Below, one piece after another: positions 5,052 through 42,588 of a stretch of 64,000 nucleotides of DNA. The DNA is taken from assembly GCA_964616485.1 (NCBI GenBank), contig CAZTRB010000005.1, positions 11,592 to 75,591 of the forward strand, read 5' to 3'. Origin of the DNA: an uncultured Muribaculaceae bacterium (GTDB lineage Bacteria > Bacillota_I > Bacilli_A > RF39 > UBA660). The translations under genes were made by a program, and so were the position numbers. The notes below the pieces were generated by a model. It worked only from the letters and a program-made list of their open reading frames with translations, searched no databases and was not told where the DNA came from. The number at the start of each line of letters is the position of its first letter. The first letter of the stretch is position 1.

Positions 5052-5495
5052 TTACATTTCGAATAAGGTTTCACTAAATACACATATTAGATCTTCGTCT
5101 AGTTTCAAGGATTTATTATTTATTATCGTAAATGATAATTCTTCGTTTTCATTTAAAGTATCATATTCACTAAAAGAGTTGGTATTTATTAATTTTAAGT
5201 TATCAGAAAATATCTCATATGTTCCTTCTAGCTTAATATGTCCTTCACAAGAACTAATACTGAGTTCATAAGTAAAATCATCTCTAAGTTTTAAATAAGT
5301 GTTCATATCGTCTTTTACTCTATAGTCACCGTGCAGCTTCGTATCTGAAAAAGATCTCTTATTAACTGTATTAACAGCATAAACGTAAACTTCAATAGGT
5401 GTTGGAACGACAATGTATACTAGGATAATACTAAAAACTGCTATAAGTAAAAAAGTAATATTGGCTATTTTATTAAAGTCTCTACTCTCTTTCAT
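5052..5495 (-). CDS. hypothetical membrane-anchored protein (147 aa)
   Basis: AGAGGAGG RBS 8 nt upstream of the ATG; N-terminal TM helix ITFLLIAVFSIILVYIVV. Confidence 0.55.
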   Translation of the reverse strand: MKESRDFNKIANITFLLIAVFSIILVYIVVPTPIEVYVYAVNTVNKRSFSDTKLHGDYRVKDDMNTYLKLRDDFTYELSISSCEGHIKLEGTYEIFSDNLKLINTNSFSEYDTLNENEELSFTIINNKSLKLDEDLICVFSETLFEM

Positions 5496-8700: not shown

Positions 8701-9193
8701 TAAAAGGAACTTTACCTTCCATCGTAGAAAGATAACTAACGTTACTTAAATCCATTACTTCTTGAACAGAAGAGGATTGTAATATAGCAAACCCCGTCGT
8801 TCTAGCAGCATAGATATCTTGATGATCTCCTAAAATAGAAAGCGAATGACTCGCTAAAGAACGAGAAGCTACATTTATAACACAAGGAAATAACTGCCCT
8901 GCAATCTTATACATATTAGGAATCATCAACAAGAGTCCTTGAGAAGCCGTAAATGTCGTAGCTAAGATACCATTTTGAAGAGCACCATGAACCATAGCGA
9001 TAGCACCGGCTTCACTCTCCATCTCGACTACTTTTATTTTCGATCCCCAATAATTCTTCTTCCCTTCAGCACTCCAACTATCGACATTCTCAGCCATAGG
9101 TGATGCGGGTGTTATCGGATATATACCGGCTAGTTCAGAAAAATTATAAGCGACTAAACTACACGCTTCATTACCATCCATTATCTTATACAT
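5765..9193 (-). CDS. nifJ: pyruvate:ferredoxin (flavodoxin) oxidoreductase, single-chain PFOR
   Basis: N-terminus MDGNEACSLVAYNFSELAGIYPITPASPMAE. Two 4Fe-4S ferredoxin motifs (CIMCNMCAFVCP, CTGCGLCVNICP). TPP-binding region GGDGWAYDIGYNGLDH. Start taken at ATG 9193, with an AAAGGAG RBS upstream. Confidence 0.92.
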   Translation of the reverse strand: MYKIMDGNEACSLVAYNFSELAGIYPITPASPMAENVDSWSAEGKKNYWGSKIKVVEMESEAGAIAMVHGALQNGILATTFTASQGLLLMIPNMYKIAGQLFPCVINVASRSLASHSLSILGDHQDIYAARTTGFAILQSSSVQEVMDLSNVSYLSTMEGKVPFINTFDGFRTSHELQKIEVIDFQKVKELINEDALKEFRSRALSINNLTRGTNTNDDIYFQLSEARNKYYDNLPDIVNEYMKKINAITGRDYKPFNYYGAKDATKIIVAMGSICETIKETINSLKGEKIGLIEVHLYRPFSSKYLLDVLPDTVTDIAVLSRTKEHGTSEPLYLDISNVIRETGKNIKVVGGRYGLSSKDTDPSLINAVYKFLDRKDKFNGFTIGIKDDLTNLSLDPITLTVDNETKEVVIYGFGSDGMVSVSKDIIKIVGNNTDSYVQGYFEYDSKKSGSVTKSHMRFASKPIKSTYYVNKPCLVVCTKDSYLSKFDMLDDIVENGTFIVNTFKDDKELFKALSNKDRAIIKNRNIKVYSLNANKISNEVGLGNKINTIMATAIFKVSKLIDFEIAFKEIKKALETLFKNKGTEVIEKNNRAIDRALETLTIVDFSGFDDIEDNKSSFVGKSIFDLINERRGYSIPVSEFEKIVDGSFVGGRSKEEKRNITDTVPVYNEENCIMCNMCAFVCPHGVIRPFLLNEEEVENAPESLKAKLIDANIKDQNLKYAIGVNIEQCTGCGLCVNICPGKKGEKALVMTAIEQINDEETLRETDYLFNVVTEKQVMTLNTVKGSQFATPKFEYSGACAGCGETPYIKLLTQLFGEELVIANATGCSSIYGGSVPSTPYSVPWANSLFEDNAEFGFGMRVSEVIHKDKIKMILRDNLSKINDNDLEVVNSYLEDTNLENSKRLYEIVDSLNIPELLEEKDFIKTKSFWIIGGDGWAYDIGYNGLDHVLASNEDVNILVLDTEMYSNTGGQASKSSKYGGIAKFAASGKETHKKNLAKMAMTYPHVYVATVSLGANMMQTIKAFNEAKNHKGPSLIIAYSPCIVQGIKAGMGTSIEEEKKATESGYFPIFRYNPTTEEFSLDSKADFDKYEEFLDGENRYAALNKVNPEKKDDFYDINKREAIRVYEHYESLKEDKKITE

Positions 9194-10142
9194 CAATATT
9201 TCTCCTTTTTAATCCCTTACTCATCTCTTTAATAATGTATATAGGTCTTTTCTTTATCTCTGAATATACCTTCGATAAATAGGCTCCTATTATTCCTAAT
9301 GAGAATAGTTGAACTCCTCCGACGAAGAAGATTAACCAAAATACTAATAACACACTACTTATAGAGACATCTATTATTAAGTTTACCACAATTATAACGA
9401 ATAAGACAAACGCTACGAGAGAAAATAATAGACTCATTACAAAAGGAATCATCAAAGGAACTGTTGAAAAACCAATTATTCCCTCGAAAGCATACACTAA
9501 GAGATTCCAAAAACTCCACTTAGTATTACCTGCCACTCTCTCGACATTCTTATACTCTAACCACTTAGTCTTAAATCCAACGAAAGTAAACAGACCTTTA
9601 GAATAACGATTATACTCTCTCATCGTCAAGATTGAATCGACTACTTGTCTTCTCATCAATCTAAAGTCTCTAGCTCCATCGACCATCTCTGTCTTAGAAA
9701 TTTTATTTATCAACTTATAAAATCTTCTAGCAAAGAAACTCCTAATAGGTGGTTCTCCTTTTCTAGTCGTCCTCCTACAAGCTACGACATCGTAGTCCTC
9801 CTCTTTAATAAGACGATACATCTCTTCTAAAAGACTAGGTGGATCTTGTAAATCAGCATCAAGCGTCGCTACATAATCTCCAGTCGCATGTTCTAATCCC
9901 GCTAAAACAGCACCTTCTTTACCAAAGTTTCTAGAAAGAGAAATATACTCTACTCTCTTATCTTTCTTCTTTAATTCTTTAATATATTCTAAAGTATTAT
10001 CTTTAGAACAATCATTGACAAAGACAAATTCAAAATTAACTTTCTTTAAGTTTTCTGCTATCCTAGTTACTTCTTCATAAAAGTAAGGAAGCGACTCCTC
10101 TTCATTATAACAAGGAACGACTAACGATATTTTTTCTCTCAT
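9186..10142 (-). CDS. GT2 polyprenyl-phosphate sugar transferase (GtrB/CsbB-like), with C-terminal TM helices
   Basis: ISLVVPCYNEEESL ... DADLQDPP (DxD) motif plus two C-terminal TM helices. Overlaps the PFOR start by 8 nt. Confidence 0.8.
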   Translation of the reverse strand: MREKISLVVPCYNEEESLPYFYEEVTRIAENLKKVNFEFVFVNDCSKDNTLEYIKELKKKDKRVEYISLSRNFGKEGAVLAGLEHATGDYVATLDADLQDPPSLLEEMYRLIKEEDYDVVACRRTTRKGEPPIRSFFARRFYKLINKISKTEMVDGARDFRLMRRQVVDSILTMREYNRYSKGLFTFVGFKTKWLEYKNVERVAGNTKWSFWNLLVYAFEGIIGFSTVPLMIPFVMSLLFSLVAFVLFVIIVVNLIIDVSISSVLLVFWLIFFVGGVQLFSLGIIGAYLSKVYSEIKKRPIYIIKEMSKGLKRRNIDV

Positions 10143-10143
10143 A

Positions 10144-11592
10144 CTATTCTTTAATCCTTCTTTCTATTTTTTCAAAGATTCCCATATACCTAACATAAGC
10201 GTCTTTTTCCAAAGGAATCTCATAATACTTTTTAAGTTCTTTTAACTCTTCACTATTTATCGGGTTAAACTTATAGACTAGTTTTAAAGGGTTAGCTTTT
10301 ATCTCGATAGTATTTTGATTAGATTCTAACTGTTCTTTAATGTATTCTCCCCTAGTCTTCTCAAAATAAGATATTAACAAGAAAGAAGAGATATAATAAA
10401 TTACTAACAAGCTCGTTAATAAGACGACTCTCTTACTAACATTAAATTCTTTATTACTAACAAATATTGCTAAGGAACTAATTAAAAATAAAGTAAAGGC
10501 ATAATTATTACCAAAGTCCCACTCCTGTGATATAAGACTAAAAAGACTAACTGCAATCGAGAAGATAAATAAGACATTTATTAATCTCTTACTCTTTAAA
10601 TCTTTACTATAATAGTGAAGACTTCTAATCAATAAATAAAAATATAATAAGTAATAAAAAGCATAATACCAATTCTCTACTGCAAAGAAACCGTTATAAC
10701 GATTAATTACTAAAGTTAAAGATACTGGCGAATAGAAAGAGAAATTATAAATAAAAGAAAAATACAAGATGATATTAAATAAGACGATAAGTATTCTAGA
10801 GTAAATCCCTTTAAGTCTTTCCCCTAAATAAAAGTTAATCGGTATCGTCGACAATATTATTAATAATATATTTCTAGAAAAAGTATTTTCGATAAAATCG
10901 GGAATACTATTAAAGACATAGTTTATATCGAGAATAAAAATACTCTCTTTAAAGAAACTAAAGACGAATAATAAAGTCAAGAGATGAAAGATTACTACTA
11001 AGAGATACTTTTTATTATAATTACATATTAAGTAAAATATATTTGCTATAACAAAAGAAATAGCGATGAAGATAGACGAGGTAATAACATAACTACCGAG
11101 AAGTATCATCATGACATAATCACGATAGTTTCTCTCTTTATCTCTTATACTAAATAGACTATAGAAATATATAAAACCTAGTAATATCGGTATCGTATAA
11201 CTAAAAGCACCACTTACAGAGACGTAATTATAAGCAAACATATCGACGCTGACTAAAAGCATTAATAAAAATGTTATCACATACATAAACTTGTTCTTTA
11301 CTATTCCTAATAGAGTGTTGGTCCTAAAGACAAACATCGAAGTAACTATCGCTATTATCAGATTAAACCAAACTTTATTATAAGAGAATATATTAATAAA
11401 AAAACCACTTATTACTCTTCCGTCTAAAATAGAAGAATTTTCTAAATTATAAGCGATCCCCTCTTTACCTAAAGAAAAAAAAGCCCAATCTATTCCACCT
11501 AATGGAGATAAAAAAGCCACTATCAAAAAGAAGAAAAAGACATATGTCGTTAACTTATATTTATAATCTATCGTTTTAATTCTATCATTCAT
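10144..11592 (-). CDS. polytopic membrane protein (>=10 TM), putative GT-C glycosyltransferase or glycan polymerase partner of the GtrB-like enzyme
   Basis: Hydrophobic throughout, with a ~75-aa soluble C-terminal tail. Sits immediately next to the GtrB-like GT2 in the same operon. Confidence 0.5.
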   Translation of the reverse strand: MNDRIKTIDYKYKLTTYVFFFFLIVAFLSPLGGIDWAFFSLGKEGIAYNLENSSILDGRVISGFFINIFSYNKVWFNLIIAIVTSMFVFRTNTLLGIVKNKFMYVITFLLMLLVSVDMFAYNYVSVSGAFSYTIPILLGFIYFYSLFSIRDKERNYRDYVMMILLGSYVITSSIFIAISFVIANIFYLICNYNKKYLLVVIFHLLTLLFVFSFFKESIFILDINYVFNSIPDFIENTFSRNILLIILSTIPINFYLGERLKGIYSRILIVLFNIILYFSFIYNFSFYSPVSLTLVINRYNGFFAVENWYYAFYYLLYFYLLIRSLHYYSKDLKSKRLINVLFIFSIAVSLFSLISQEWDFGNNYAFTLFLISSLAIFVSNKEFNVSKRVVLLTSLLVIYYISSFLLISYFEKTRGEYIKEQLESNQNTIEIKANPLKLVYKFNPINSEELKELKKYYEIPLEKDAYVRYMGIFEKIERRIKE

Positions 11593-11600
11593 AAAGTCTC

Positions 11601-12080
11601 CTATAACTTATCTATGTAATCCTCTATTAATTTTACCATATTTTTAGTATTACTCTCATACTTTTTAGGTTTAAAAGTCTTAGCTTTTTCTAAAGTCTTA
11701 GAAAGTTTATTAAGATCTTTAAGAGGAAGTATATATTTCTTAGAACTTAATTGTTCGATAATCTCTAATTGATGATCGTTATCATGCTCTTTAAACTTCT
11801 TTAGTCTAGGAGCAGCTATTACAACTTTATTATATTCTAATCCCTGTAAGATAGAACCTACTCCACCATGAGTAATTAATAAACTACAATCTTTAATCAT
11901 CTTAGCAAACTCTTCACGAGAAATAAAATCAAAGATTTTCATATTAGGACTCTCATACTTAGTATGACCTGCTTGGACAATTACTTCTTCTTTAATAGTT
12001 CCTTTCTTTATCTCTCTATCTATTTGCTCTAATAAACGTTTAAACTCTTTATCTTGAGTTCCAAGAGTAACTAATATCAT
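11601..12080 (-). CDS. Alg13-like glycosyltransferase subunit (GT28 C-terminal domain; Cps14G/EpsF-type)
   Basis: MILVTLGTQ ... THGGVGSI motifs. Start ATG 12080 overlaps the Alg14-like stop (TAATG), and a G-rich RBS lies upstream. The ORF-track GTG extension is not used. Confidence 0.75.
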   Translation of the reverse strand: MILVTLGTQDKEFKRLLEQIDREIKKGTIKEEVIVQAGHTKYESPNMKIFDFISREEFAKMIKDCSLLITHGGVGSILQGLEYNKVVIAAPRLKKFKEHDNDHQLEIIEQLSSKKYILPLKDLNKLSKTLEKAKTFKPKKYESNTKNMVKLIEDYIDKL

Positions 12081-12550
12081 TAGTAAATCCACCCCCCATA
12101 AACCGCTTTAGGATAAAGTTTTAACATACTCTCCCATTGAACGATAAATAAATCGGCAAAGAGATAGATTAACCTTCCCGTAATCGTCTTACTCTTACTA
12201 TTAGCAAGCGTCTCGATATAAATAATCTTACTACCGAATATTTTACCGACACAACACATTGGTCCTGCCGTATGAGCACCAGTAGTTATGATTACTTTAG
12301 GTCTAATCTTAAAGTAAAGAAAGAGACTCTTAAAAGAATTATATATTAACTTAAAGGGATAAGTTAATAAATGAGCCTTAGTTCCATAGACTAAATACTT
12401 TACTTTTCCCGGATATTTATCTTTTAAAGTCATATTAGATTTAGTCTTTTCTGTTATTATATAGTGATCATATTTCTCAAACATCGAAGACAACTTCATC
12501 ATCTCAGATAAATGACCACCAGTAGAAGATATAAATAAAACCTTTTTCAT
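12080..12550 (-). CDS. Alg14-like glycosyltransferase membrane-anchoring subunit (Cps14F-type)
   Basis: VLFISSTGGHLSEMMKL motif. Translationally coupled to the Alg13-like gene. Confidence 0.7.
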   Translation of the reverse strand: MKKVLFISSTGGHLSEMMKLSSMFEKYDHYIITEKTKSNMTLKDKYPGKVKYLVYGTKAHLLTYPFKLIYNSFKSLFLYFKIRPKVIITTGAHTAGPMCCVGKIFGSKIIYIETLANSKSKTITGRLIYLFADLFIVQWESMLKLYPKAVYGGWIY

Positions 12551-12557
12551 AAACCAC

Positions 12558-13772
12558 CTATTTTAGTATTTTAAACCAATCTTTCTCTATATTTTTAGCT
12601 AAGTACTTTTGAGATATTTTAAGATTCTCTTTACTTAGTTTTTCTCTATACTTATTATCTTTTAAAATAAGAACGATTTTTTCTTTTAAAAGGCTTAAGT
12701 CTCTATTAGGTATCAAAACATCACTATTATCTTCTAAGACTTCACATATTCCCTTAGCACTATCGAAACCAATAACAGGAAGTCCATAACTAGCAGCTTC
12801 GATTACGACTAAACCGAAAGACTCCGAGAATGATGTAGTTACGAAAAGAGAACTATCTAACATATACTTTTCTATCTTATCTTTAGATAAAAATCCGAGT
12901 AATTCGACATTATCATTTAAAGATAATTTCTTAATTTGTTTCTCTAAATTACTTCTTTCAGACCCATCACCGATTAGGTAAAGCTTAATATTAGGTATAT
13001 TTTCTCTAACCAAAGATAATACTTCTAAAAGGTCAGAGTGTCCTTTTTCTAGAGATAATCTTCCGACATTGATTATGTTATTTGTCTTTAATAGAGATTT
13101 TTTCTTCGGCAATTCGTCTAAGACATTGGGTATATAAAGACACTCTACATTCGTCTTATCTTTATAAAAGTCTCTGAGTTCTCTAGATACTAAGATAAAA
13201 TAAGAAAATCCTTTAATAGAAGATACTAACTTTCTAACATATTTTTTATCGTTATTATGATAGTTGTGATCGGTAACAATTTTTACAATATGTCTATTAC
13301 CATAAGTAGATACTAATCTATTATGGAAGGTCCTAGTAGTAATTACATACTTGCTATTTATTTTAATAATAGCATTAATATTTAAAAGACTTTTTTTAAA
13401 TAAGAGAACAAGAGCTATATATGCTTGTTTTAATATACCAAAGATATTCTTATTAGTTAATTCTTTTTTAAACTCTTCTCTATTAGGTTTAGAATCAATT
13501 AAATATTTTATCTTAATCTTCTTATCAAAATAAAACGCGGGTTGTTCTAGCAACTTATAAGTAGTTATAATCTCTATCTCAAACTTTTTATCTAGCATCT
13601 TACAAAGAGAAGACAAGTACTTTTCGATACCACCATATCCTAAATGAAGAGCTAATATCGTTATCTTATTTTCTTTTAGTTTTCTCTTGTTATATTTTAA
13701 AATTAAAAACACTAAAAATAAGATAATAACAAAAGACAATAATACTAATAACAGTTGCAATATATCACACAC
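12558..13772 (-). CDS. GT4-family (GT-B) glycosyltransferase with an N-terminal TM helix
   Basis: GRLSLEKGHSDLLEV ... ESFGLVVIEAASYGLPVIGFD (the E-x7-E region). Confidence 0.8.
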   Translation of the reverse strand: MCDILQLLLVLLSFVIILFLVFLILKYNKRKLKENKITILALHLGYGGIEKYLSSLCKMLDKKFEIEIITTYKLLEQPAFYFDKKIKIKYLIDSKPNREEFKKELTNKNIFGILKQAYIALVLLFKKSLLNINAIIKINSKYVITTRTFHNRLVSTYGNRHIVKIVTDHNYHNNDKKYVRKLVSSIKGFSYFILVSRELRDFYKDKTNVECLYIPNVLDELPKKKSLLKTNNIINVGRLSLEKGHSDLLEVLSLVRENIPNIKLYLIGDGSERSNLEKQIKKLSLNDNVELLGFLSKDKIEKYMLDSSLFVTTSFSESFGLVVIEAASYGLPVIGFDSAKGICEVLEDNSDVLIPNRDLSLLKEKIVLILKDNKYREKLSKENLKISQKYLAKNIEKDWFKILK

Positions 13773-13812: not shown

Positions 13813-13847
13813 TAGCAAGAAAAAAGATATCTTTTTCAAGATATCTT
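13813..13847 (-). terminator. rho-independent terminator of the giant prepilin-like gene (overlaps its stop codon)
   Basis: Two copies of the palindrome aagatatctt separated by tttc (13824-13847), preceded on plus by an A-run 13816-13823. Confidence 0.6.
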
Positions 13848-16800
13848 ATCCCCAATTTTCACAACCACAAGCTGCTGTTCTACAAGAATTATTTCCTCCT
13901 ACACAAGTACTATAAGTGTATAGACAATTATTCCATCCACATGCACTATGTTGACAATAATAGTATCCGGCACATCCACAGCAATCATTATAACAGGTTG
14001 CAGCTTCCTCACCAGAAACACAACATGTTGTCGAAGTTTTATACCATGTTTGGCCACCCGAACTAGGTTTGCTACTTGCACACTTAGTTCCGCACCCATA
14101 ACCTCCTGTGTTTTGGTAACATTCATAGATATTTCCTTTAGTTTTACAATATGTTCCGCAACAAGAGTAACTAGTACATCTTTTATTTCCAGTACATCCG
14201 CATCCGGCAGTATAACAAGAATTATATCCTCCAACACAAACGGACGGGTTACCTGTTAAACAAGAATTCCATCCACAATTAGCATGTTGACAACTCTTAT
14301 TGGTAACACAACTCGATGTTATAGAACAAGTTCCTGTATTACCCGCTCCATCTGTAACCGTGTATGTCTTTGTACCTTTAACATTTGAATCATTATATGT
14401 AGCTGGAGATACTCCACTTGCATTATCAGAAGTTGTAACTTTTACGGTTATTCCATTAGCTCCATTCGCTGTTTTAACAGCAGTACAAGTAGGATTAACT
14501 GTATCTCTTTTTATCGTAAATACATTAGATGCAGCAGATGCATTACCTGCATTGTCAATTGATCTTACATAGAAATTCCAATTCCCATCCCAGTTTATCG
14601 TCCATGGATTTGACATTGCTGTCCAATTTGCAGCATCATGACTATACTGATAACTAGCAATTCCAGAACCAGTTCCGTCCGAAGATGATGCAGTTATTAC
14701 AACATTAGATTTTGTCCAAGTGCCTGAAGTATAAGAACCTAGATTGATCGTTGGTTTTGAAGGTTTTGTTGCATCTCTCTTTATTGTTACGACATTTGAA
14801 TTATCACTTATGTTACCAGATTTATCTATAGCCCTTACATAAACGTTCGTAGATATATCTGAACTAATTGTCCATGGATTCGACATCGTCGTCCATCCCG
14901 ACGTCCCATTAGTACTATATTCATATCTATCTAAGTTAGTATCCGATGAACTCGCTGTTATGACAATATTTTGATTTGACCATGTATTAGATGTATATGT
15001 AGTACCATCTGCTTTTTTCAAGGTTAAAGTTGGTTTCGACGGTTTCGTCGCATCTCTTTTAACATTAAAGACGTTTGACACATCACTTATATTACCAGCA
15101 CCATCAGTAGACCTTACATAGTAATTACTTTCGACATCTGTACTAATTGTCCATGGATTTGCCATATTTGTCCATCCTGAAGTTCCATTAACACTATATT
15201 CATATTTACTTATTCCTGAAATATTATCAGTTGAACTTGCCGTTACGACTACATTGCCAGAGGTCCATGTCCCTGAAGTATAAGAACCTAAATTGATCGT
15301 CGGTTTCGATGGTTTAGTAGCATCCCTTTTGATAACTACGGCATTAGATACATCACTAACATTTCCTGAGGAATCGATTGCTCTTACATAGATGTTTGTC
15401 GAAGTATCCCAGTTAATCGTCCATGGATTTGTCATAGCCATCCATCCCGATGTTCCGGTCGTACTATATTGATATCCAGCTAAGTTATCATCAGTTGAAC
15501 TTGCTGTAATGATTATATTTTGATTTGACCATGTATTAGATGTATAAGTAGAATTGTCTGCTTTCTTCATTGTCAATGTTGGTTTTGATGGTTTCGTCGC
15601 ATCTCTTCTAACAATAAATGGATTTGAATTATCACTTACGTTACCAGCACCATCAGTCGATCTGACATAGTAAGTTTTATCGGTATCGAAGTTTATCGTC
15701 CATGGATTTGACATCGTCGTCCATCCTGAAGTTCCATTGTTACTATATTCGTATTTGCTTATTCCCGAAATATTATCAGTTGAACTTGCCGTTACGACGA
15801 CATTACCAGAAGTCCATGTACCAGAAGTATACGAACCTAGATTAATCGTCGGCTTCGATGGTTTAGTACCATCTATTTTTACCGTTTGGTTGTTCGGACA
15901 AGTAACACAGTTTCCTGCTCTATCACAAACCTCGCCCGGTCCAGCCGTCGTCGTATTTATATCACTAGTATAAGGTTTAGTAATTGTCGTATTTACACAA
16001 CCACTACCACTATCACTACAAGTACCAATTATATTTACAGTCGTCTTACTCCATGCAGAACTTCCACCACTACTTACACAAGTTGGTTTCGTCGTATCGA
16101 TCGTATCGACGACTACCGCTTTATTAGTAACATGTCCAGCTTGGTCCTTAACCCACACATAATATGTACCATTATCAGAAGCTATATTTGGAACACCAAT
16201 TCCAAAACTAGTTCTTGCCGATATAGCGGTAAATGTCGGTTGTGTCGTCGAACTCTTATTTATACCGTAACCGATTATTCCTGAATTAGTATCTGTTCCG
16301 GTAAATACTATCGTTCCGTTAAGTCCGTCTTGACCAGTATCGATTATCGTCGAGTACGCTACATCCCAACTTACTGAAGTACCAGAACCCGTCAAGTAAA
16401 CGTGTCCGAAAGTCGAGAACGTTCCCGAACTACCCGCTTTTTGAATATAGATATATTCTGCCCAATCTCCAGTTCCAGCTTGTGGAGTGATCCAGTAGAC
16501 GCTTGAACCTGTACCGGTAGAATTAGAAGCTCTTTGAATAGTATACCCAACTGGTATCTTTGCAATTATTCTATGAGCATATACAGCATTAGCTCTCGAA
16601 GTTACAGTTTGAACATAACCTCCTAATCCAGGAGAACTGACACCATTTGTCGTTATTCTCATAACGTATGAACCATATGGGTTAGATTGAGCTACTCTAG
16701 CGTGAGTAACAGTACCATTTCCACTATTATTATATACGCTAAAGTTATTTGTCCCAGAAGCAAACGTCGGATCTTTGAATAACGGAGTCCCTGATATTGC

Positions 16801-18897
16801 TTCTGATATAACCGGAGCATTTTTATCTATTCTTACGATTTGGTCAGCCTGGCAAGTAGTACAGTTTCCTGCATTATCACAAACTTGTCCAGGTGATTCA
16901 TTAGTCGAATTTATATTAGAAGTATATGTTTTCGTTACCGTCGAATTCACACAACCACTATCAGCGTCATTACACGTTCCAGTAATCGTGACATTCGTCG
17001 TTTTCCATGTAGCGCTTCCACCACTATTTATACATGTTGGTGGTTCGTTATCGGCAGTTATCGTTTGGTGATACCATCCGCCACTATTTGGCGATTGAGT
17101 TATGACGTTACCAGCATTATCAACTAGTCTCGTATAAACGGTATATACTCCTCCAGGTAAACTAACAACGTGTTTATTTTGTCCAGTAATAGATGTAATG
17201 CCACCTACAGCAACACCGTTTCTTTCCATCTTGACTTGGAACTCTTTAATACCACTCAAATTATCAGCAACCGTAATTGTCAACGTTTGATTAGCACTAT
17301 ATACTCCCGTTAATAAGCTATAACTTGCAGTAGGAGCCGTCTTGTCGATTCTAGAAATCGTTACTGATGAAGGATCAGATGATAAACCGACAACGTTTCT
17401 CGTACGAACTTGAGCATTCGTTACATTTGACGAATAAATATTATAATTTGTCGATTGCCAAGAAGCGCCATCATTAAACGAATACTCAGTCGTTCTAACT
17501 AATCCAGCTCTTGGAATCAAGTTAACTTTTACATTGTTCTTAGTCCAGATACCTGGAGAAGCAGCGACTAAATCAATTCTAGAAACATTGTAAGATACAC
17601 CACTTAGTGCTCCTAAAACTAATCTAAAGTTAGAGTATTGTCCAACCGAAGGTAAAATAAACTCTATGTCTCTAGTACCTTGAATCATTAATGCTGATAC
17701 TGAGAGTTCATTCCCATTTTGATCTTTAAAGTAGACTCTACCCGTCGTCGTCGTTGGAATATTAGTATTTAAAGTCACAGTTAATTTCTTAATACCATTA
17801 AATGTCGGATACGAAGCAGTACCAAACGTTATAACTGGGTTTGTCGTAGTCGTCGTTAGTATTGTACCCGCTAAATTTAACCCCGAAAGAGTATATTCAT
17901 ATTGGTTAGGGAACAATTGATATGCATACTCAACATCAAATTCTGGTTTTGGAACACCCACTCTTACGTCGATTGAACAAATCCCCTCATTACCCGCTTC
18001 GTCTTTAACATAACCTACGACTGTCGTAAGTCCCATATCTAATTTAAGACTATCTTTTTTATTATAATCAATATTCTTTATACTAGTACCAAGTCCATAA
18101 GTTAAAAGTCCACTATCAGCATCATCTTTAGTATCGAACTTAACATAAACGTCTCCCGAATACCACCCTAACGCTTCTAAGTTTCCGCCATCTCTAATAA
18201 GTGTACAAGTTGGAGGAGTCTTATCGACATATACTTTTACCGGACAACTAGTTTGATTTCCACTCTTATCAACTATATTAATAAAACTCTCAGTAGTAGT
18301 CGTACCAAATGTCTTAGAGAATCTAGCTAAACGACAACCACTAGTTTGGTCACTACAACCAACACTAATTGTTCTATTTTCCTTAGTCCATGTAGTAGAT
18401 TCACCTATGACACTACCACATACCGGATTATCATTATCAGATTCATACTTAGAACAAGCCGAACCTTCAGTAGAATAATTTTCACAATACAAACACGCTC
18501 TATATTCGTAGTCACCACTAACTTTGCTTACCTCAACATAACTAAGTAAACTATTACAAAATCCATCTGTTTCCGGATCTTTTAATTCATCAGAGTAACC
18601 TTTTTCAATAACATCACTCAAATAGACAATAGATCTATCTCCATCGCCTGGTAAATTACAAGTGTAATCATTATTAGCAATACAATCAACAACCATGTTA
18701 TTCGTAGCTGTTTGCATATTCTTTTCATAAGCTAAATAAGTATTATCCTTACTACTTCCAATATAATTAGAAATAGCCGGAACTGTAATGATTGCCAATA
18801 TAGCAATTATCACGATAACGGCGATTACTTCTATTAAAGTAAACCCTTTCTTTTTCTTGGCTTTTTCCAAAATTTTACTAACAGTTTTCTTTCGCAT
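13846..18897 (-). CDS. giant modular type IV pilin-like protein (~1683 aa): class III signal peptide, cysteine-containing HYR/Ig-like modules, five tandem Ig-like repeats and a cysteine-rich C-terminal domain
   Basis: MRKKTVSKILEKAKKKKG|FTLIEVIAVIVIIAILAIITVPAI is a canonical prepilin leader, with Gly at -1, Phe at +1, Glu at +5 and a ~21-residue hydrophobic helix. AAGGAG RBS 8 nt before ATG 18897. The ORF-track upstream extension is translation of the promoter. Repeats of ~88-95 aa begin DATKPSKPT. The last ~160 aa contain about 34 Cys. Confidence 0.8.
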   Translation of the reverse strand: MRKKTVSKILEKAKKKKGFTLIEVIAVIVIIAILAIITVPAISNYIGSSKDNTYLAYEKNMQTATNNMVVDCIANNDYTCNLPGDGDRSIVYLSDVIEKGYSDELKDPETDGFCNSLLSYVEVSKVSGDYEYRACLYCENYSTEGSACSKYESDNDNPVCGSVIGESTTWTKENRTISVGCSDQTSGCRLARFSKTFGTTTTESFINIVDKSGNQTSCPVKVYVDKTPPTCTLIRDGGNLEALGWYSGDVYVKFDTKDDADSGLLTYGLGTSIKNIDYNKKDSLKLDMGLTTVVGYVKDEAGNEGICSIDVRVGVPKPEFDVEYAYQLFPNQYEYTLSGLNLAGTILTTTTTNPVITFGTASYPTFNGIKKLTVTLNTNIPTTTTGRVYFKDQNGNELSVSALMIQGTRDIEFILPSVGQYSNFRLVLGALSGVSYNVSRIDLVAASPGIWTKNNVKVNLIPRAGLVRTTEYSFNDGASWQSTNYNIYSSNVTNAQVRTRNVVGLSSDPSSVTISRIDKTAPTASYSLLTGVYSANQTLTITVADNLSGIKEFQVKMERNGVAVGGITSITGQNKHVVSLPGGVYTVYTRLVDNAGNVITQSPNSGGWYHQTITADNEPPTCINSGGSATWKTTNVTITGTCNDADSGCVNSTVTKTYTSNINSTNESPGQVCDNAGNCTTCQADQIVRIDKNAPVISEAISGTPLFKDPTFASGTNNFSVYNNSGNGTVTHARVAQSNPYGSYVMRITTNGVSSPGLGGYVQTVTSRANAVYAHRIIAKIPVGYTIQRASNSTGTGSSVYWITPQAGTGDWAEYIYIQKAGSSGTFSTFGHVYLTGSGTSVSWDVAYSTIIDTGQDGLNGTIVFTGTDTNSGIIGYGINKSSTTQPTFTAISARTSFGIGVPNIASDNGTYYVWVKDQAGHVTNKAVVVDTIDTTKPTCVSSGGSSAWSKTTVNIIGTCSDSGSGCVNTTITKPYTSDINTTTAGPGEVCDRAGNCVTCPNNQTVKIDGTKPSKPTINLGSYTSGTWTSGNVVVTASSTDNISGISKYEYSNNGTSGWTTMSNPWTINFDTDKTYYVRSTDGAGNVSDNSNPFIVRRDATKPSKPTLTMKKADNSTYTSNTWSNQNIIITASSTDDNLAGYQYSTTGTSGWMAMTNPWTINWDTSTNIYVRAIDSSGNVSDVSNAVVIKRDATKPSKPTINLGSYTSGTWTSGNVVVTASSTDNISGISKYEYSVNGTSGWTNMANPWTISTDVESNYYVRSTDGAGNISDVSNVFNVKRDATKPSKPTLTLKKADGTTYTSNTWSNQNIVITASSSDTNLDRYEYSTNGTSGWTTMSNPWTISSDISTNVYVRAIDKSGNISDNSNVVTIKRDATKPSKPTINLGSYTSGTWTKSNVVITASSSDGTGSGIASYQYSHDAANWTAMSNPWTINWDGNWNFYVRSIDNAGNASAASNVFTIKRDTVNPTCTAVKTANGANGITVKVTTSDNASGVSPATYNDSNVKGTKTYTVTDGAGNTGTCSITSSCVTNKSCQHANCGWNSCLTGNPSVCVGGYNSCYTAGCGCTGNKRCTSYSCCGTYCKTKGNIYECYQNTGGYGCGTKCASSKPSSGGQTWYKTSTTCCVSGEEAATCYNDCCGCAGYYYCQHSACGWNNCLYTYSTCVGGNNSCRTAACGCENWG
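14500..15870 (-). repeat. five tandem ~265-285 bp intragenic repeats (alternating two subtypes) encoding Ig-like modules
   Basis: Recurring ...ggtttcgatggtttagtagcatc... blocks at about 15834, 15571, 15290, 15036 and 14741. Protein repeats are TKPSKPTINLGSYTSGTWT.../TKPSKPTLTxKKAD... Confidence 0.8.
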
Positions 18898-18931
18898 AAT
18901 AAAGCTCCTTGTATTATCTTTTATATATAAC

Positions 18932-18960
18932 ATTTTAATATCTTTATACATAATAGTCAA
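18932..18960 (-). promoter_or_regulatory. sigma-A-type promoter of the prepilin-like gene (TTGACT-17-TAAAAT)
   Basis: Reverse complement of agtcaa at 18955-18960 gives the -35. Reverse complement of atttta at 18932-18937 gives the -10. The spacer is 17 nt. Confidence 0.5.
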
Positions 18961-19043
18961 GAAAGATTTAGTCGTTAAATCTTTTAGTTTTTTGTAAAAA
19001 GTTGTCTAATTCCTTATAAATTATGTAAAACTTTCCTAGCAAG

Positions 19044-19072
19044 TAGACACTATATACAATATATTATATAAT
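19044..19072 (+). promoter_or_regulatory. sigma-A-type promoter of the dockerin-hydrolase gene (TAGACA-17-TATAAT), divergent from the pilin-like gene
   Basis: tagaca at 19044-19049, a 17-nt spacer, tataat at 19067-19072. Confidence 0.5.
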
Positions 19073-19105
19073 TATATTACTAATAATGGCATGGAGGTGT
19101 AACAA

Positions 19106-21121
19106 ATGAAGAGATTTTTATTCGTGATTCTTTTGATATTGCTTCTTTTTAATAGTGGAACAGCACATGCAGAAATTATTAAGACTGGTCGGGCTATAGC
19201 CGATGTTGGGCTTAGAATTAGAGCTACTCCCTCTACTAGCGGAACACAATTAGGAACGATACCCTATGGAACGATAGTTAGAATCATCGGTGAAGCGAAT
19301 GGTTCGGGATGTAACGATCCTTGGTTTCAAGTAATTTACTCTACTGGTAATAGTAATATAAACGGTTATTCTTGTTCTACTTATATAACGGAAATTACGG
19401 AGTATGATACTGAAGAGAATACGCCTACAACACCACCAGTAAATAGCGAGGACTTCGAAGCCTACTTAACTTCACAAGGATTCCCAGAAAGCTACAAAGT
19501 CAAACTAAGAATTTTACACGAACAACATCCTAATTGGATATTTGTCGGTATAAAAGTAAGAGAGTCTTGGCAAACGTCTTTAAATCTTCAAGGCGAAGAT
19601 GGAAGAAGTACATTAAATGTTAATGCGGCAAGAAAGGCTTTGGGGCAAGAGGGATATTTATCGACTGCAGCGGGACACTATAACTATGAGACTGACACTT
19701 TTATTCCTAAAGATGGTACTTATTGGTTTCAAGCTAACTCAGATGCTATTGGATATTACCTTGACCCAAGAAACTTCATGGACGAGAAAAATGTTTTCAT
19801 GTTCGAAAGTCTTTTACAAAACGATGCTATTCATACTAAATCAGTAGTCGACGGGATCTTGTCGAGTGACTTCATGAAACAATATTCTAATCATTTCATG
19901 AAAGGTGCAAGAGACTACAACGTTTCTGCTACGCACTTAGCATCACTATCTAGACAAGAAGTAGGAATTACTAACGGTAACATTGTTACTAACGGAAAAG
20001 CCGGAGTATTATCAGACGGAGTTAACTATAACGGTTACTATAACTTTTTTAATATCGGAGCATCATCATCGGGAGATCCGAAGTTAAAATCGTTACAAAG
20101 CGCTAAAGCTCGCGGCTGGAATTCACCTGAGAAATCAATCGTTGGTGGAGCGGCTTTTATATCTAGTGGTTATATTAATGCCGGACAATACACGGCTTAT
20201 CTTCAAAAGTTTAACGTCGATCCTAATGCTACTAAAGGAATATGGCATCAGTATATGACTAACATAGCGGCATTATCTTCGCCGGCAATTACGACATATA
20301 ACTCATATAATAATCTCGGTTTCATAAACCATTCATTTATATTCTCGATTCCAATATTTACTAATATGCCAGAAAGCACTTCGTTACCTCCCTTAGGTAA
20401 CCCAAATAACTGGCTAAAAGAAATAAAGATAAATGGTATCGCTTTATCTAGTTTCTACGGTGGTACCACTAATTACACCATCGATATTCCTTACGAGGAA
20501 GAGATTACAGTAGAGGCTAAAAAAGTAAATAGTAACGCTACTGTATCAGGAACTGGAACAAAAGCCTTAACGGAAGACAAAACCACTTTAACGATTAAAG
20601 TCACTGCTCAAAACGGAAGCGTTAAAAACTATACGGTAACAGTTAATCGTGGGATAAAAGACGATCCTAACTTAGAGATAGATCTTCTATTAAAAGATGT
20701 CTTAACTGATAGCAAATACAAATACGATAGTAAAAATCTTTGGGGAATAACTCTAGGAACTAGCGTTAAGAGTCTTACTAGTAAAATAAAAGGAAAATAT
20801 AAAACAGTAAGTGTAAATATAAAAAATAAAGACGGCAATACTAAAACAGACGGTGTCATAGTTACAGGAGATAAAGTAACGATAACGACTAAACAAGAAT
20901 CTACTACTATCGAAGTAATAATCTTTGGTGATACTAATGGAGACGGATACATCTCGGCAATCGACATCTTAAGCGCTCAAAAACATATCCTTGGATATAC
21001 TACTCTTTTAGGAACTAGTTTCAAAGCGGCAGACATAAATAAAGACGGTGTCATATCAGCTTATGACTTACTACAATTTCAAAAACACGTCTTAGGTTAT
21101 ACTAATATAAGCCAATCATAG
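19106..21121 (+). CDS. secreted multidomain putative peptidoglycan hydrolase: signal peptide, SH3b, GH73/glucosaminidase-like domain, cadherin-like beta-sandwich and a C-terminal dockerin
   Basis: GGAGGTG RBS. Signal peptide ...GTAHA. SH3b-like region IRATPSTSGTQLGTIPYGTIVRI. GH73-like motifs LSRQEVG...NFFNIGA...YMTNIAA. Cadherin-like region LKEIKINGIALS...TIKVTAQNGSVKNYTVTV. Dockerin repeats GDTNGDGYISAIDIL and DINKDGVISAYDLL. Confidence 0.7.
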   Translation: MKRFLFVILLILLLFNSGTAHAEIIKTGRAIADVGLRIRATPSTSGTQLGTIPYGTIVRIIGEANGSGCNDPWFQVIYSTGNSNINGYSCSTYITEITEYDTEENTPTTPPVNSEDFEAYLTSQGFPESYKVKLRILHEQHPNWIFVGIKVRESWQTSLNLQGEDGRSTLNVNAARKALGQEGYLSTAAGHYNYETDTFIPKDGTYWFQANSDAIGYYLDPRNFMDEKNVFMFESLLQNDAIHTKSVVDGILSSDFMKQYSNHFMKGARDYNVSATHLASLSRQEVGITNGNIVTNGKAGVLSDGVNYNGYYNFFNIGASSSGDPKLKSLQSAKARGWNSPEKSIVGGAAFISSGYINAGQYTAYLQKFNVDPNATKGIWHQYMTNIAALSSPAITTYNSYNNLGFINHSFIFSIPIFTNMPESTSLPPLGNPNNWLKEIKINGIALSSFYGGTTNYTIDIPYEEEITVEAKKVNSNATVSGTGTKALTEDKTTLTIKVTAQNGSVKNYTVTVNRGIKDDPNLEIDLLLKDVLTDSKYKYDSKNLWGITLGTSVKSLTSKIKGKYKTVSVNIKNKDGNTKTDGVIVTGDKVTITTKQESTTIEVIIFGDTNGDGYISAIDILSAQKHILGYTTLLGTSFKAADINKDGVISAYDLLQFQKHVLGYTNISQS

Positions 21122-21130
21122 GAGGACTTT

Positions 21131-22546
21131 ATGAAAAAAATCTTTAAACCATTTACAATGGTTTTCCTTTTTACAGTGATGTTTTTGTTTAATAATAACG
21201 TCTTGGCAGCTAACTTAAATGTCTCGATAACCTCGAGTACTAGTAGAGCGGTAGTTGGTAACAATATTACTTATACGGTTAGAGTGTCTTCTAATGCTAA
21301 ATTTGGTAATATTCATTATAGATTAGAATATGACACTTCTAAGTTAACTCATGTAAGTGGAACACTAAATAATTTTGATTTAAATGTTATCGATAAATAT
21401 TCTGCTACTTACACTTTTACTTTTAGAGCAAAAGCAAGTGGTAATGCTAGAGTAACGTTCGTAATCAACGAAGCCTTAGAATTAAATAACAATTCTTTTA
21501 ATTATAATACTAGAACCAATAAAGATATAACGATCATAACTCAACAACAATTAGAAGCTAGCTATAGTAAAAACAACTACCTATCATCTTTAAAAATAGA
21601 TAATTTTGAAATGACACCGGCTTTTAATAAAGATACTTTAGAATACTCGATAGAATTAGAAAACGATGTTAAATCAATAAATATTAGCGGTACTAAAGCA
21701 GATTCAACAGCATCAGTCGAAGGTTTGGGTGCACATGAATTAATAGAAGGACCAAATAAAATAAATATAAAAGTTACTGCCCAAAACGGTGCCTCTAGAA
21801 CATATACGATAAATGCAACGGTAAAAGAATTAAATCCCATTATCGTAACTGTCGACGGCAAAGAATATAATGTCGTTAGAAAAAAAGACCTAATAAAAAA
21901 ACCTAATAGCAAATACGAAGAGACGATTATACAAATAAATGAAGAAGATGTCCCAGCTTTCATAAACGAGACGACTAAAGTAACATTAATCGGGCTTAGA
22001 GATGAAGAGGACAACATTTCTTTATTTAGTGTTAAAAATGATACGTATATTCCTTACCAAGAATTCGCTTTTAGTAGTATAATATTTACGGAAGAAAATT
22101 TAGACGATCTTCCTAAAGGTTATACTAAAACTAAATTAAAACTCGAAGAAGTAGAAATAGACGCTTATCAAGATAACTCTAACTTAAATTTCTACCTAAT
22201 AAAAGGAGTGAACATTGAAACGGGAATAACTTCCCTATATCAATATGATAGTAAAGAAAACACTCTTCAAATATATAATGATTCATTAGCTAAACAAAAT
22301 AAGGAATTAACTAATAAGAATAATATTTATCTTTATACTATAATTGGTCTAATAGCACTCATAGCTATATCTTCCGGAACGATATTAGTAAAGACTTTAA
22401 AAAATGAAAAACCTAAAATAAAAAAAGAAGAGAAGACCGACAAAAAAGTCAAAGAAAAAGTAGAGGAACCGAAAGAACCTATCATAGAAGAAGAGAGTCT
22501 AACAAAACAAATAAAGAAAATGAAAAAAAATAAAAAACAATCTTAA
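21131..22546 (+). CDS. membrane-anchored cohesin-like scaffold protein (signal peptide, cohesin-like domain, cadherin-like domain, C-terminal TM and Lys-rich tail)
   Basis: AGGAGG RBS. Cohesin-like pattern NVSITSSTSRAVVGNNITYTVRVSSN...IHYRLEYDTSKLTHVSG...RVTFVINEA. Cadherin-like region LSSLKIDNFEMTPAF...INIKVTAQNGASRTYTINATV. TM helix IIGLIALIAISSGTILV followed by a lysine-rich tail. Confidence 0.6.
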   Translation: MKKIFKPFTMVFLFTVMFLFNNNVLAANLNVSITSSTSRAVVGNNITYTVRVSSNAKFGNIHYRLEYDTSKLTHVSGTLNNFDLNVIDKYSATYTFTFRAKASGNARVTFVINEALELNNNSFNYNTRTNKDITIITQQQLEASYSKNNYLSSLKIDNFEMTPAFNKDTLEYSIELENDVKSINISGTKADSTASVEGLGAHELIEGPNKINIKVTAQNGASRTYTINATVKELNPIIVTVDGKEYNVVRKKDLIKKPNSKYEETIIQINEEDVPAFINETTKVTLIGLRDEEDNISLFSVKNDTYIPYQEFAFSSIIFTEENLDDLPKGYTKTKLKLEEVEIDAYQDNSNLNFYLIKGVNIETGITSLYQYDSKENTLQIYNDSLAKQNKELTNKNNIYLYTIIGLIALIAISSGTILVKTLKNEKPKIKKEEKTDKKVKEKVEEPKEPIIEEESLTKQIKKMKKNKKQS

Positions 22547-39059: not shown

Positions 39060-39073
39060 CTTGACCTCCTATT

Positions 39074-40213: not shown

Positions 40214-40310
40214 GGTCCTCCTATTATAAATATTATATACTACAACAAAGAAAAAAAACAACTTTTACAGTCTTTTGTACTGTTTAATTGTTTTTTTGTA
40301 AACTTATCTT

Positions 40311-40826
40311 TTAACGAACTACATAGTCAAGTGTCAGCCTCAAGTCTTTTGTTAAGTCTTCAGCGGTAACTTCTTCAGTCATATCTGGATTATAATAAGC
40401 TATAACTTCAAATAATTTGCTTTGTCCGACTTGTAATACTTCACCGGCTTCTATTCCGTTTATTGTATAAATAATAAATCCTTCTCCATAGTCTTTAGGA
40501 TTTAATTCAATGGCATTTAATTTAGCATCTAGGTTTCCTTGATTTCTAACATTAACAACATATTTAACGGTATCACCAGGATCGACAAAAGTAGCGCTAA
40601 ATATAGCGGTCTTAGAATCTAAAACGGTCGATTCTAAACTTTTTCCACTTCCCTCAGTCTCTGTGCTATTAATTGCCGTTATCGCGACGTCAAAGTCAGG
40701 GTTAACGATCGTAGCACTTCCTTTTATTTCTAACTGCGTAGATAAAAGAGCATACCCTACTGACACAAAAACAAGTGCAACTAGTAAAGCTCCAATCATC
40801 GTATTTTTCTTATCTTTATTGCTCAT
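40311..40826 (-). CDS. TasA/camelysin (peptidase M73)-like secreted protein, putative SipW substrate
   Basis: Lys-rich N-terminus plus hydrophobic signal KKNTMIGALLVALVFVSVGYA. Core FVDPGDTVKYVVNVRNQGNLDAKLNAIEL resembles the CalY/TasA LKPGDSVKKEF..QNSGSL block. AGGAGGA RBS. Confidence 0.5.
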   Translation of the reverse strand: MSNKDKKNTMIGALLVALVFVSVGYALLSTQLEIKGSATIVNPDFDVAITAINSTETEGSGKSLESTVLDSKTAIFSATFVDPGDTVKYVVNVRNQGNLDAKLNAIELNPKDYGEGFIIYTINGIEAGEVLQVGQSKLFEVIAYYNPDMTEEVTAEDLTKDLRLTLDYVVR

Positions 40827-40880
40827 ATAATCCTCCTATAATAAATTTTAATATATATGGCTTTTATTGTCAATTATTCG

Positions 40881-41948: not shown

Positions 41949-41964
41949 TTAATCACATCCTTTA

Positions 41965-42587: not shown

Positions 42588-42588
42588 A

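Follow-up and report, generated by a model that had tools for sequence, protein, structure and literature searches.

The locus described here raises the question of what the N-terminus of a type IV pilin is doing on a protein of 1683 residues, the product of a gene (13846-18897, minus strand) that lies in a window of 64 kb, the window being the whole stretch of DNA that was analysed. Modular pilins are a recent concept, with experiments on two small Streptococcus sanguinis proteins, and a family of 100-400-kDa proteins probes the limits of this concept: either type IV machines manage subunits 10-30 times as large as usual, or the N-terminus of pilins has a further role as a surface anchor. We know of no pilin near 180 kDa that is built into a filament across a Gram-positive wall. 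The explanation favored here, in which our confidence is evenly balanced, is that the protein is a giant modular type IV pilin-like adhesin that would bind glycans and be displayed by a type IV filament.

The two S. sanguinis modular pilins, PilB with a vWA module and PilC with a lectin module, are presented by type IV pili (PMC8179133). The InterPro catalogue of modular pilins comprises more than 1200 proteins in 264 architectures (Raynaud et al., 2021; PMC8179133), and the most extreme example given in that survey has 860 residues (PMC8179133), which the giant protein exceeds about twofold. Like the members of this catalogue, it joins an N-terminal IPR012902/PF07963 motif to domains that are not specific to type IV pili, here Big_7 and OmpL47-type repeats that score above cut-off and a predicted CBM32-like fold, and this is what defines a modular pilin; unlike them, the family to which it belongs runs from about 900 to 3792 aa and consists mostly of modules that carry no Pfam signature.

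Gene start, prepilin signal and pilin module

The mechanical ORF list holds a longer form of the gene (13846..18960, minus strand), the start of which would be overlapped by a promoter-like site. As the preliminary description had it, this ORF is over-extended and the real start is ATG 18897, which is preceded by a well-spaced ribosome-binding site and from which the 5052-nt reading frame runs unbroken in DNA of 31.6% GC. The features at this end of the gene are as follows.

18932..18960, minus strand: promoter-like TTGACT-17-TAAAAT, a 10/12 match to consensus of a kind not enriched over shuffles
18905..18910, minus strand: AAGGAG ribosome-binding site, read directly, 7 nt ahead of ATG 18897
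18844..18897, minus strand: basic leader peptide, aa 1-18, ending in Gly-1, with a predicted prepilin peptidase cut after G18
18439..18843, minus strand: pilin module, aa 19-153, with a hydrophobic alpha1-N, a predicted long alpha1 and then a small, Cys-containing head predicted to be a beta-sheet

The N-terminus consists of the Lys-rich leader of 18 residues, MRKKTVSKILEKAKKKKG, followed after the predicted cut by FTLIEVIAVIVIIAILAIITVPAI, such that Gly-1 is G18, Phe+1 is F19, Glu+5 is E23 and Pro+22 is P40. It is recognized above the curated cut-offs by both PF07963 (N_methyl; 29.3 bits against 21.2) and TIGR02532 (27.8 against 16.3), and the giant gene holds the sole copy of the prepilin motif in the 64 kb. 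In an alignment of 25 diverged homologues, Gly occupies position -1 in 19 sequences and Ala in the other 6; F+1, L+3, E+5 and P+22 never vary and G+14 hardly does. All five are signature positions of alpha1 in type IVa pilins and in pseudopilins, and within type IV filaments E+5 is linked to contacts between subunits and to extraction. Structure prediction gives a helix of 55 residues at the N-terminus (aa 21-75) and behind it a small beta-sheet head, and in a PDB profile search 22 of the 23 matches fall on pilins or pilus-like chains, among them Geobacter PilA (2e-10), S. sanguinis PilE1 (4e-9) and FimA, whose alignment covers residues 1-103. The class III signal with its pilin-type alpha1 helix, already recognized in the preliminary description, is bona fide and opens a pilin-type N-terminal module. 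The protein is not an LPXTG adhesin, as its C-terminus (...AACGCENWG) has neither LPXTG nor a transmembrane segment and its N-terminus is the prepilin signal.

Domains behind the pilin module

The remaining part of the protein is a chain of adhesin-like modules grafted behind the pilin N-terminus, in agreement with what had been proposed earlier, and it can be divided as follows.

18205..18438, minus strand: Cys-containing Ig-like module 1, aa 154-231, a divergent PTC...SGC...AGNC-type copy, 35-38% identical to the other two
17965..18204, minus strand: Ig-like domain, aa 232-311, with TYGxGTS ... GYVKDxAGNEGxC, and with invariant columns in family alignment A1
17548..17964, minus strand: conserved beta-sandwich, aa 312-450, with a predicted galactose-binding-like fold (CBM32 / F5-8 type C / CBM29)
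17053..17547, minus strand: two Ig-like domains, aa 451-615, the second with weak DUF7743/Big_13-type matches below cut-offs
16813..17052, minus strand: Cys-containing Ig-like module 2, aa 616-695, from sequence comparison of the copies
16318..16812, minus strand: beta-rich module, aa 696-860, shared by only a few homologues (P0003, 52% identity; P0047, 39%)
16099..16317, minus strand: Ig-like domain, aa 861-933, from its sequence pattern, with no family above threshold
15865..16098, minus strand: Cys-containing Ig-like module 3, aa 934-1011 (934-1013 in the comparison of the copies), 58% identical to module 2
14482..15864, minus strand: five tandem OmpL47-type/Big_7 repeats of 90-95 aa, aa 1012-1472, from NF047446, PF17957 and pairwise identities
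14317..14481, minus strand: short Ig-like linker domain, aa 1473-1527, from its sequence and a weak Big_9 match
13849..14316, minus strand: Cys/Gly-rich distal domain, aa 1528-1683, with 28 Cys and 23 Gly in 156 aa

The two Cys-containing modules that had been reported are modules 2 and 3, to which module 1 adds a divergent further copy. Modules of the latter type are repeated in many homologues. The label HYR that had been given to them is not supported as a family assignment, as the best PF02494 match (16.6 bits, E 0.01), a weak hint, falls below the cut-off of 21.7 and sits on aa 232-311, off the Cys modules, and the isolated modules have no significant Pfam family. The same negative Pfam result was obtained for aa 312-450, aa 696-860 and the Cys-rich tail. 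The distal domain carries a CQHxxCGWNxC...CVGGxNSC...GCGC motif at both of its ends; a Cys-rich C-terminal domain had been correctly noted, although with about 34 cysteines in place of the 28 counted here. The C-terminal Cys-rich regions of homologues match TNFR/ephrin-receptor-like Pfam models.

The five tandem repeats, also described previously, follow the order A-B-A-B-A, with repeats 1 and 3 being 84% and repeats 2 and 4 being 76% identical, and the array is likely to form an extended stalk. The repeats are matched by PF17957 (27.1 bits against a cut-off of 24.1) and by NF047446, the OmpL47-type barrel model, in six stretches (E 9e-44; 147.8 against 40). The likeness to Leptospira OmpL47 is confined to this repeat domain, as the whole-protein model NF047441 fails (79.8 bits against 250) and the envelope, the signal and the remaining architecture differ. 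Tandem Repeats Finder, whose period limit is 500 nt, reports no DNA-level array; an A-B unit is longer than this, at about 550 nt, and its copies have diverged.

The beta-sandwich of aa 312-450 is a candidate glycan-binding site, a role suggested only by its predicted fold. This fold resembles the CBM32/F5-8 type C modules of gut glycosidases, such as the CBM32 of Clostridium perfringens NanJ and those of GH29 fucosidases, at a sequence identity of 9-17% and with no Pfam hit, and in contrast to those modules it is joined to a pilin and not to an enzyme. A concrete handle on ligand specificity is offered by this conserved CBM32-like domain.

Glycan binding by a lectin-type module would parallel the function of S. 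sanguinis PilC (PMC8179133), and the giant protein shares with PilB and PilC a monoderm (Bacillota) host, a canonical class III signal, a small pilin module and C-terminal adhesion modules. The S. sanguinis proteins, however, are bimodular, a few hundred residues long and encoded inside the pil operon, whereas the protein described here has about 14 modules, and its gene is an orphan with no adjacent machinery that is multi-copy in relatives. In addition, the lectin module of PilC is ConA-like, unlike the CBM32/F5-8C-like fold predicted here, and assembly of the giant protein is proposed from its sequence. The layout of a pilin module followed by beta-rich domains is also that of CofB of ETEC, TcpB, GspK and Thermus ComZ, which are thought to be located at filament tips (PMC8179133). 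These proteins differ from the giant protein in having 300-550 aa, in being operon-encoded and in their diderm hosts, and no sequence similarity to them was detected past alpha1.

A family of accessory genes in uncultured gut and rumen Bacilli

Searching with a profile of the first ~520 residues gave 478 clusters of proteins at E<=1e-30. The majority have 900-3800 aa, the longest has 3792 aa, and the motif (G or A, then F-T-L-I-E after the cut) is kept within the first 130 residues in 106 of the 133 representatives that were checked. Every genomic match lies in a low-GC 'Bacilli' MAG of an uncultured gut or rumen bacterium, 170 relatives being located in gut and rumen MAGs of this kind, to which the large family is, as far as seen, confined, and the nearest relative in the genome-contig scan is 53% identical. 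Members already go under the name 'prepilin-type N-terminal cleavage/methylation domain-containing protein' in at least one source (JGI), and a search for literature on pilins this large, on giant modular pilins or on RF39 pilins found nothing relevant; the family of giant pilins is so far undescribed. The preliminary description had called the architecture highly unusual, which is true relative to the published survey with its 860-residue extreme but not in the sense of unique, given a family of this extent.

Family members share a conserved block, consisting of a Cys-Ig domain, an Ig domain, the CBM32-like beta-sandwich and Ig domains, followed by lineage-variable Ig-like and Cys-rich modules. 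The best-conserved stretch is the Ig-like domain of aa 232-311, and aa 451-615 form the end of the N-terminal block that is colinear throughout the family. That the gene is a chance ORF, an assembly chimera or a pseudogene in decay whose pilin-like start is a coincidence is extremely improbable. The assembly is of a metagenome type and repeats can mis-assemble, but the frame is uninterrupted over its 5052 nt, the ribosome-binding site and the promoter-like site are correctly placed, colinear homologues (35-53% identity over about 520-700 aa) occur in many independent MAGs, synteny around the gene is conserved in L003, L006 and L008, and the identical protein is recorded at both NCBI and ENA.

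The genes are accessory, often tandem duplicates, and unlinked to pilus operons. Frequently 2-5 of them stand in a row, in one case taking up about 21 kb of a 25-kb stretch, and the 1.34 Mb of loci that were scanned contain 72 ORFs with a prepilin motif, the majority longer than 600 aa. The hosts are abundant uncultured gut and rumen Bacilli that spend a striking coding capacity on giant-pilin genes, which are therefore likely to be central to attachment, be it to mucus, fibre or partner cells. One family-bearing MAG assembly is a single chromosome of 1.31 Mb, and genomes in this clade are apparently small.

This genomic setting also bears on the main rival reading, possible but on the unlikely side, that the protein is a membrane-anchored surface adhesin that never polymerises, in which the class III signal and alpha1-N, whether processed or left intact, would act only as a bitopic anchor and the Ig-like chain would span the wall and present the binding modules straight from the cell surface. 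Some members (those in L053 and L066, and P0263, P0310 and P0318) have an ordinary N-terminal transmembrane anchor in place of the G-FTLIE signal while keeping pilin-head-like sequence, which suggests that anchoring may be the conserved role. Moreover, the genes are scattered and never lie within pilus operons, up to five giant paralogues in tandem are hard to accommodate in one filament, and at 1683 to 3792 aa the proteins are far larger than any pilin shown to assemble. Against this stands the conservation of alpha1 across diverged members, since a plain anchor would hardly account for the invariance of F+1, P+22 and especially E+5, or for the near-invariance of G+14. The lineage also retains the small pilins and the ATPase with adjacent minor pilins that are described below.

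Assembly machinery and a proposed route to the surface

The preliminary description had stated that the window lacks pilus machinery, and Pfam searches, tblastn with PilB-type ATPases and motif scans indeed found no T2SSE ATPase, T2SSF platform protein or A24 peptidase in the 64 kb. Four non-nested ORFs of at least 120 aa are without any Pfam family, and at ORFs 5052-5495 and 48868-49482 the negative result comes only from tblastn (for the ATPase) and the motif scans. A downstream ORF of 482 aa (10144-11592) was considered as an O-antigen-ligase-type pilin glycosyltransferase and was dropped, because Pfam gave no match to it at a threshold as loose as E 0.5. Additional flanks of the window from two Logan assemblies contain housekeeping genes only.

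Relatives do encode a T2SSE ATPase (Pfam 6e-120), for which GspE (1e-148) and PilB (1e-135) are much closer fits than PilT (1e-53). It adjoins, divergently, two pilin-like (minor-pilin) genes with signals of the form G, then F-[TV]-[VI]-[IV]-E after the cut, and in L083 one of the ATPase-adjacent genes encodes a 748-aa LRR/CBM25 modular pilin. This MAG set also contains small pilins of 130-200 aa. One such ATPase (P0148) and a RecA (P0407) that is 84% identical to the RecA of the window share their listed longest contig, of 839233 bp. Neither T2SSF nor an A24 peptidase turned up when 1.5 Mb of related loci were scanned for motifs, a negative that is uninformative because these loci cover only a few per cent of the genomes.

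With such machinery, the favored route to a filament-displayed adhesin would begin with membrane insertion through the hydrophobic alpha1-N, after which a prepilin peptidase would cut after G18 and methylate F19. Type IV filament machinery driven by a PilB/GspE-type ATPase, as seen in relatives, could then incorporate the protein via alpha1, presumably as a tip-located or rare subunit. The ~1500 residues of domains, arranged as beads on a string, would reach out past the cell wall, where the lectin-like and distal Cys-rich domains may recognize glycans, or ligands of another kind, that are presented by host mucus, by food particles or by partner cells.

Very improbable by comparison is a secreted or shed protein, the N-terminus of which would target a pseudopilus (type II secretion or Com-like) or which would be released after processing, for example as a soluble glycan-binding scaffold. 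The lineage ATPase does score highest with GspE models, and a dockerin-bearing secreted protein is encoded divergently beside the giant gene and is syntenic with it. However, to our knowledge type II secretion substrates never themselves bear prepilin signals, the envelope is of the Bacilli type without an outer membrane (PBP1 and an LCP ligase are present), and neither a cohesin nor any other release signal was seen.

A further explanation, which we hold to be doubtful, is that the class III signal has been co-opted as a general export and anchoring route for a large and fast-diversifying repertoire of giant adhesins, served by a minimal, dispersed type IV apparatus consisting of an orphan PilB-like ATPase and two minor pilins. 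The C-terminal modules of this repertoire are shuffled, and the presence or absence of its members differs between close relatives. In archaea, non-pilin proteins with class III signals, such as the sugar-binding proteins of the Sulfolobus bindosome, serve in ligand binding and not in filament building, and like them the giant protein is large, has a prepilin-type signal and is encoded away from assembly genes, although it belongs to another domain of life and has no homology to them outside the signal. We know of no demonstration of such bindosome-like use in bacteria; if true, co-option would represent a bacterial counterpart of these archaeal surface proteins and a new mode of Gram-positive cell-surface construction. 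One MAG in the set additionally encodes a Tad-like RcpC together with a CpaF-like protein as a pair.

Prepilin signal and pilin module

In the mechanical ORF list the giant gene occupies the frame 13846..18960 (-), whereas the preliminary description had placed its start at ATG 18897. We accept that start because of the position of the ribosome-binding site and because a promoter-like site would overlap the longer frame:

18960-18932, (-), promoter-like TTGACT-17-TAAAAT
18910-18905, (-), ribosome-binding site AAGGAG, read from the DNA, with a 7-nt spacer before ATG 18897

The resulting product has 1683 aa and begins MRKKTVSKILEKAKKKKG↓FTLIEVIAVIVIIAILAIITVPAI, where the arrow marks the predicted prepilin cleavage site. 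The class III signal noted in the preliminary description is confirmed by PF07963 (N_methyl; 29.3 bits, gathering score 21.2) and TIGR02532 (27.8, cut-off 16.3), while the ComGC, GspG, PpdD-type pilin and ComGD/E models also match, more weakly. A six-frame motif scan found no second prepilin motif across the 64 kb.

When the first 160 aa were aligned with 24 homologues (37-53% identical), F+1, L+3, E+5 and P+22 were invariant and G+14 nearly so, and the residue at -1 was Gly 19 times and Ala six times. F+1, L+3, E+5, G+14 and P+22 are the positions that characterize type IVa pilins and pseudopilins. Against all PDB sequences the profile of this module gave 23 matches. Pilins or pilus-like chains account for 22, including Geobacter PilA (2e-10), Streptococcus sanguinis PilE1 (4e-9), Pseudomonas aeruginosa PilA, Neisseria meningitidis PilE and Dichelobacter FimA, which aligned over residues 1-103. 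An AlphaFold2 model from the same alignment (pLDDT 85.8) predicts an unbroken helix spanning aa 21-75 and, after it, a small beta-sheet. The assignment of the giant protein as a modular protein with a class III signal is solid.

Modules downstream of the pilin module

The module list of the preliminary description was essentially right, with three corrections. The Cys-containing Ig-like modules are real and number three (aa 154-231, 616-695 and 934-1011) rather than two, and the Cys-rich C-terminal domain is present but has 28 Cys, not about 34, over its 156 aa. The five tandem repeats are 90-95 aa each in the order A-B-A-B-A, with like units 84% and 76% identical, and correspond to OmpL47-type barrels/Big_7; the HYR label given to the Cys modules is a sub-threshold hint only. 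The distal tail is rich in Cys/Gly, and the equivalent C-terminal regions of homologues match TNFR/ephrin-receptor-like Cys-rich Pfam models.

Homologues are colinear with the giant protein from aa ~14 to 520-700 and diverge beyond, which defines a conserved block of the pilin module, a Cys-Ig module, an Ig domain, a 140-aa beta domain and further Ig domains. The predicted fold of the beta domain (aa 312-450) resembles F5/8 type C or CBM32-type modules of GH29 fucosidases, an Akkermansia F5/8 type C domain protein (entry titled sialidases and fucosidases), the CBM32 of Clostridium perfringens NanJ (galactose complex), CBM29 and a pneumococcal fucolectin module. It has no Pfam match, and so appears to be a galactose-binding-like domain that previously had no signature. 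Judged by fold, it is the best candidate for a ligand-binding function conserved in the family.

A family of giant pilin-like proteins

The concept of modular pilins is already known, with 860 aa as the most extreme case in a 2021 survey (PMC8179133), and at least one source (JGI) labels members of the present family 'prepilin-type N-terminal cleavage/methylation domain-containing protein'. The literature searched contained no pilin family of 1000-3800 aa, no CBM32-like core conserved in giant pilins and no giant-pilin expansion in uncultured low-GC gut Bacilli.

An initial search with the giant protein gave 79 matches, of which ~35 (900-1900 aa, PF07963 present) have the N-terminal block in common, many with Listeria-Bacteroides (Flg_new) repeats in place of its C-terminal modules. 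A family profile of aa 46-520, run against 1.84 billion cluster representatives, retrieved 4187 proteins with E<=1e-3, of which 1779 reach 1e-10 and 478 reach 1e-30. A prepilin motif lies within the first 130 aa of 106 of the 133 new representatives checked (median length 984 aa), and the gene calls of several more begin inside it; the longest member with the motif has 3792 aa. Scanning one genome per species, a set outside which the window's own genome falls, gave 170 relatives, the closest 53% identical. All 78 fetched loci belong to uncultured MAGs from gut or rumen, labeled Bacilli, Tenericutes, Erysipelotrichaceae, 'Clostridium sp.', Mycoplasma sp. CAG:956, or Candidatus Onthousia, Coprosoma or Pelethosoma.

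Relatives' loci totaling 1.34 Mb contain 72 prepilin-motif ORFs, mostly of 600-2300 aa, and one MAG whose assembly is a single 1.31-Mb chromosome (isolate name ending 'circ') has at least three family loci. Tandem arrays occur on related metagenomic contigs, with five giant N_methyl proteins in a row (933, 1738, 1614, 1200 and 1165 aa) at locus L093 1222-22100 and three of about 1390-1690 aa in 24 kb at L001 10001-24182. In the related proteins P0002, P0013, P0026, P0030 and P0046, Lys-rich leaders of 40-85 residues, far longer than usual for prepilins, precede the G/A↓FTL[IV]E site. On a 366-kb contig (L092), the gene for a 989-aa N_methyl protein is followed after 1.5 kb by a sortase gene (14537-15253), and a second N_methyl protein, of 903 aa, is encoded 4 kb further on.

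Machinery, display and genomic setting

As the preliminary description noted, the 64-kb window has no T2SSE, T2SSF or A24 peptidase gene. Related MAGs encode a T2SSE ATPase (Pfam 6e-120) that fits the assembly-ATPase models GspE (1e-148) and PilB (1e-135) far better than PilT (1e-53). It is 65-84% conserved over many contigs, stands alone in a conserved housekeeping neighborhood (LepA ... HemN-like ... Tmk) and is divergently adjoined by two pilin-like genes:

Locus L081, MKLDNKG↓FTVIE and MKKIDNKG↓FVIVE
Locus L083, a 188-aa pilin and a 748-aa LRR/CBM25 modular pilin

One such ATPase (P0148) lists the same 839233-bp longest contig as a RecA (P0407) 84% identical to that of the window, and so comes, very probably, from a fairly close relative. 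Small pilins (130-200 aa, TIGR02532 motifs) also occur in related MAGs. In the single-chromosome MAG OZ006981.1 (L004 14215-18212), a 968-aa family member is closely followed by a Tad-like pair, an RcpC/CpaB-SAF protein and a 436-aa CpaF/VirB11-like ATPase; two ~260-300-aa proteins there have no family assignment. A platform protein and prepilin peptidase were not found in the visible few per cent of related genomes, which is not evidence of absence.

The favored reading, which we put at about even odds, is that a type IV filament takes up the giant protein at its tip or as a rare subunit and so displays it. The conservation of E+5, P+22 and G+14 goes far beyond the needs of a membrane anchor, an assembly-type ATPase persists in the lineage together with minor pilins and small pilins, and the modular pilins of S. 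sanguinis are presented by a type IV filament (PMC8179133). The main rival, that the pilin helix serves only as an anchor, is somewhat less likely but has real support: paralogues are numerous and large, family genes are never linked to pilus operons, and in some members an ordinary TM helix replaces the pilin helix. Two such relatives (L053 5302-7668 and L066 4148-6460), ~8 kb from the PilB-like ATPase, begin with a TM anchor (MYDEEEKSFSLRKILLTLILIIVFIILL) rather than G↓FTLIE yet keep a pilin-head-like sequence (…LQEMLDMKLLVPFTDKNGKSCD…YELKVYLKC…).

At 31.6% GC, the window is a chromosome segment of Bacillota type with genes for RNase J, RNase Y, RecA, RecU, DnaD, PBP1 and an LCP ligase. The giant gene is flanked by:

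19106-22546, (+), divergent: secreted SH3_3, cadherin-like and type I dockerin protein, plus a cadherin-like paralogue
9186-13772, (-), directly downstream: glycosyltransferase cluster of GT4, an Alg14/Alg13-like pair, a 482-aa ORF with no family match, and GT2

No cohesin partner for the dockerin was seen within the window, and no terminator-like site separates the giant gene from the glycosyltransferase cluster. Ser and Thr make up 25% of the giant protein, and its glycosylation is conceivable. The arrangement, dockerin gene included, is syntenic in the related loci L003, L006 and L008, the last with two tandem copies of the giant gene, whereas L090 (RecA 87% identical) has the RecA-RNaseY-RNaseJ-LCP-cadherin-dockerin-GT neighborhood without it (compare window 13846-21121). 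The gene is thus positionally conserved in some species yet accessory, with presence/absence and copy-number polymorphism among L090, L008 and the window.

Elsewhere in the window lie two further features:

38019-43482, (-), seven-gene cluster: DUF5305; a 395-aa polytopic protein with a C-terminal S26 signal-peptidase domain; a 171-aa protein with a TasA/camelysin-style N-terminus; 355-aa and 297-aa proteins; two ~100-aa WXG100-like proteins (PF06013 E 5e-5, below cut-off)
52463-54514, (-), 683-aa protein with a C-terminal GGDEF domain

The cluster is possibly of the SipW-type fiber or WXG100 secretion kind, and a TasA-style protein similar to its 171-aa member is found near the PilB-like ATPase of L081. 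The GGDEF protein indicates cyclic-di-GMP signaling in the window's organism.
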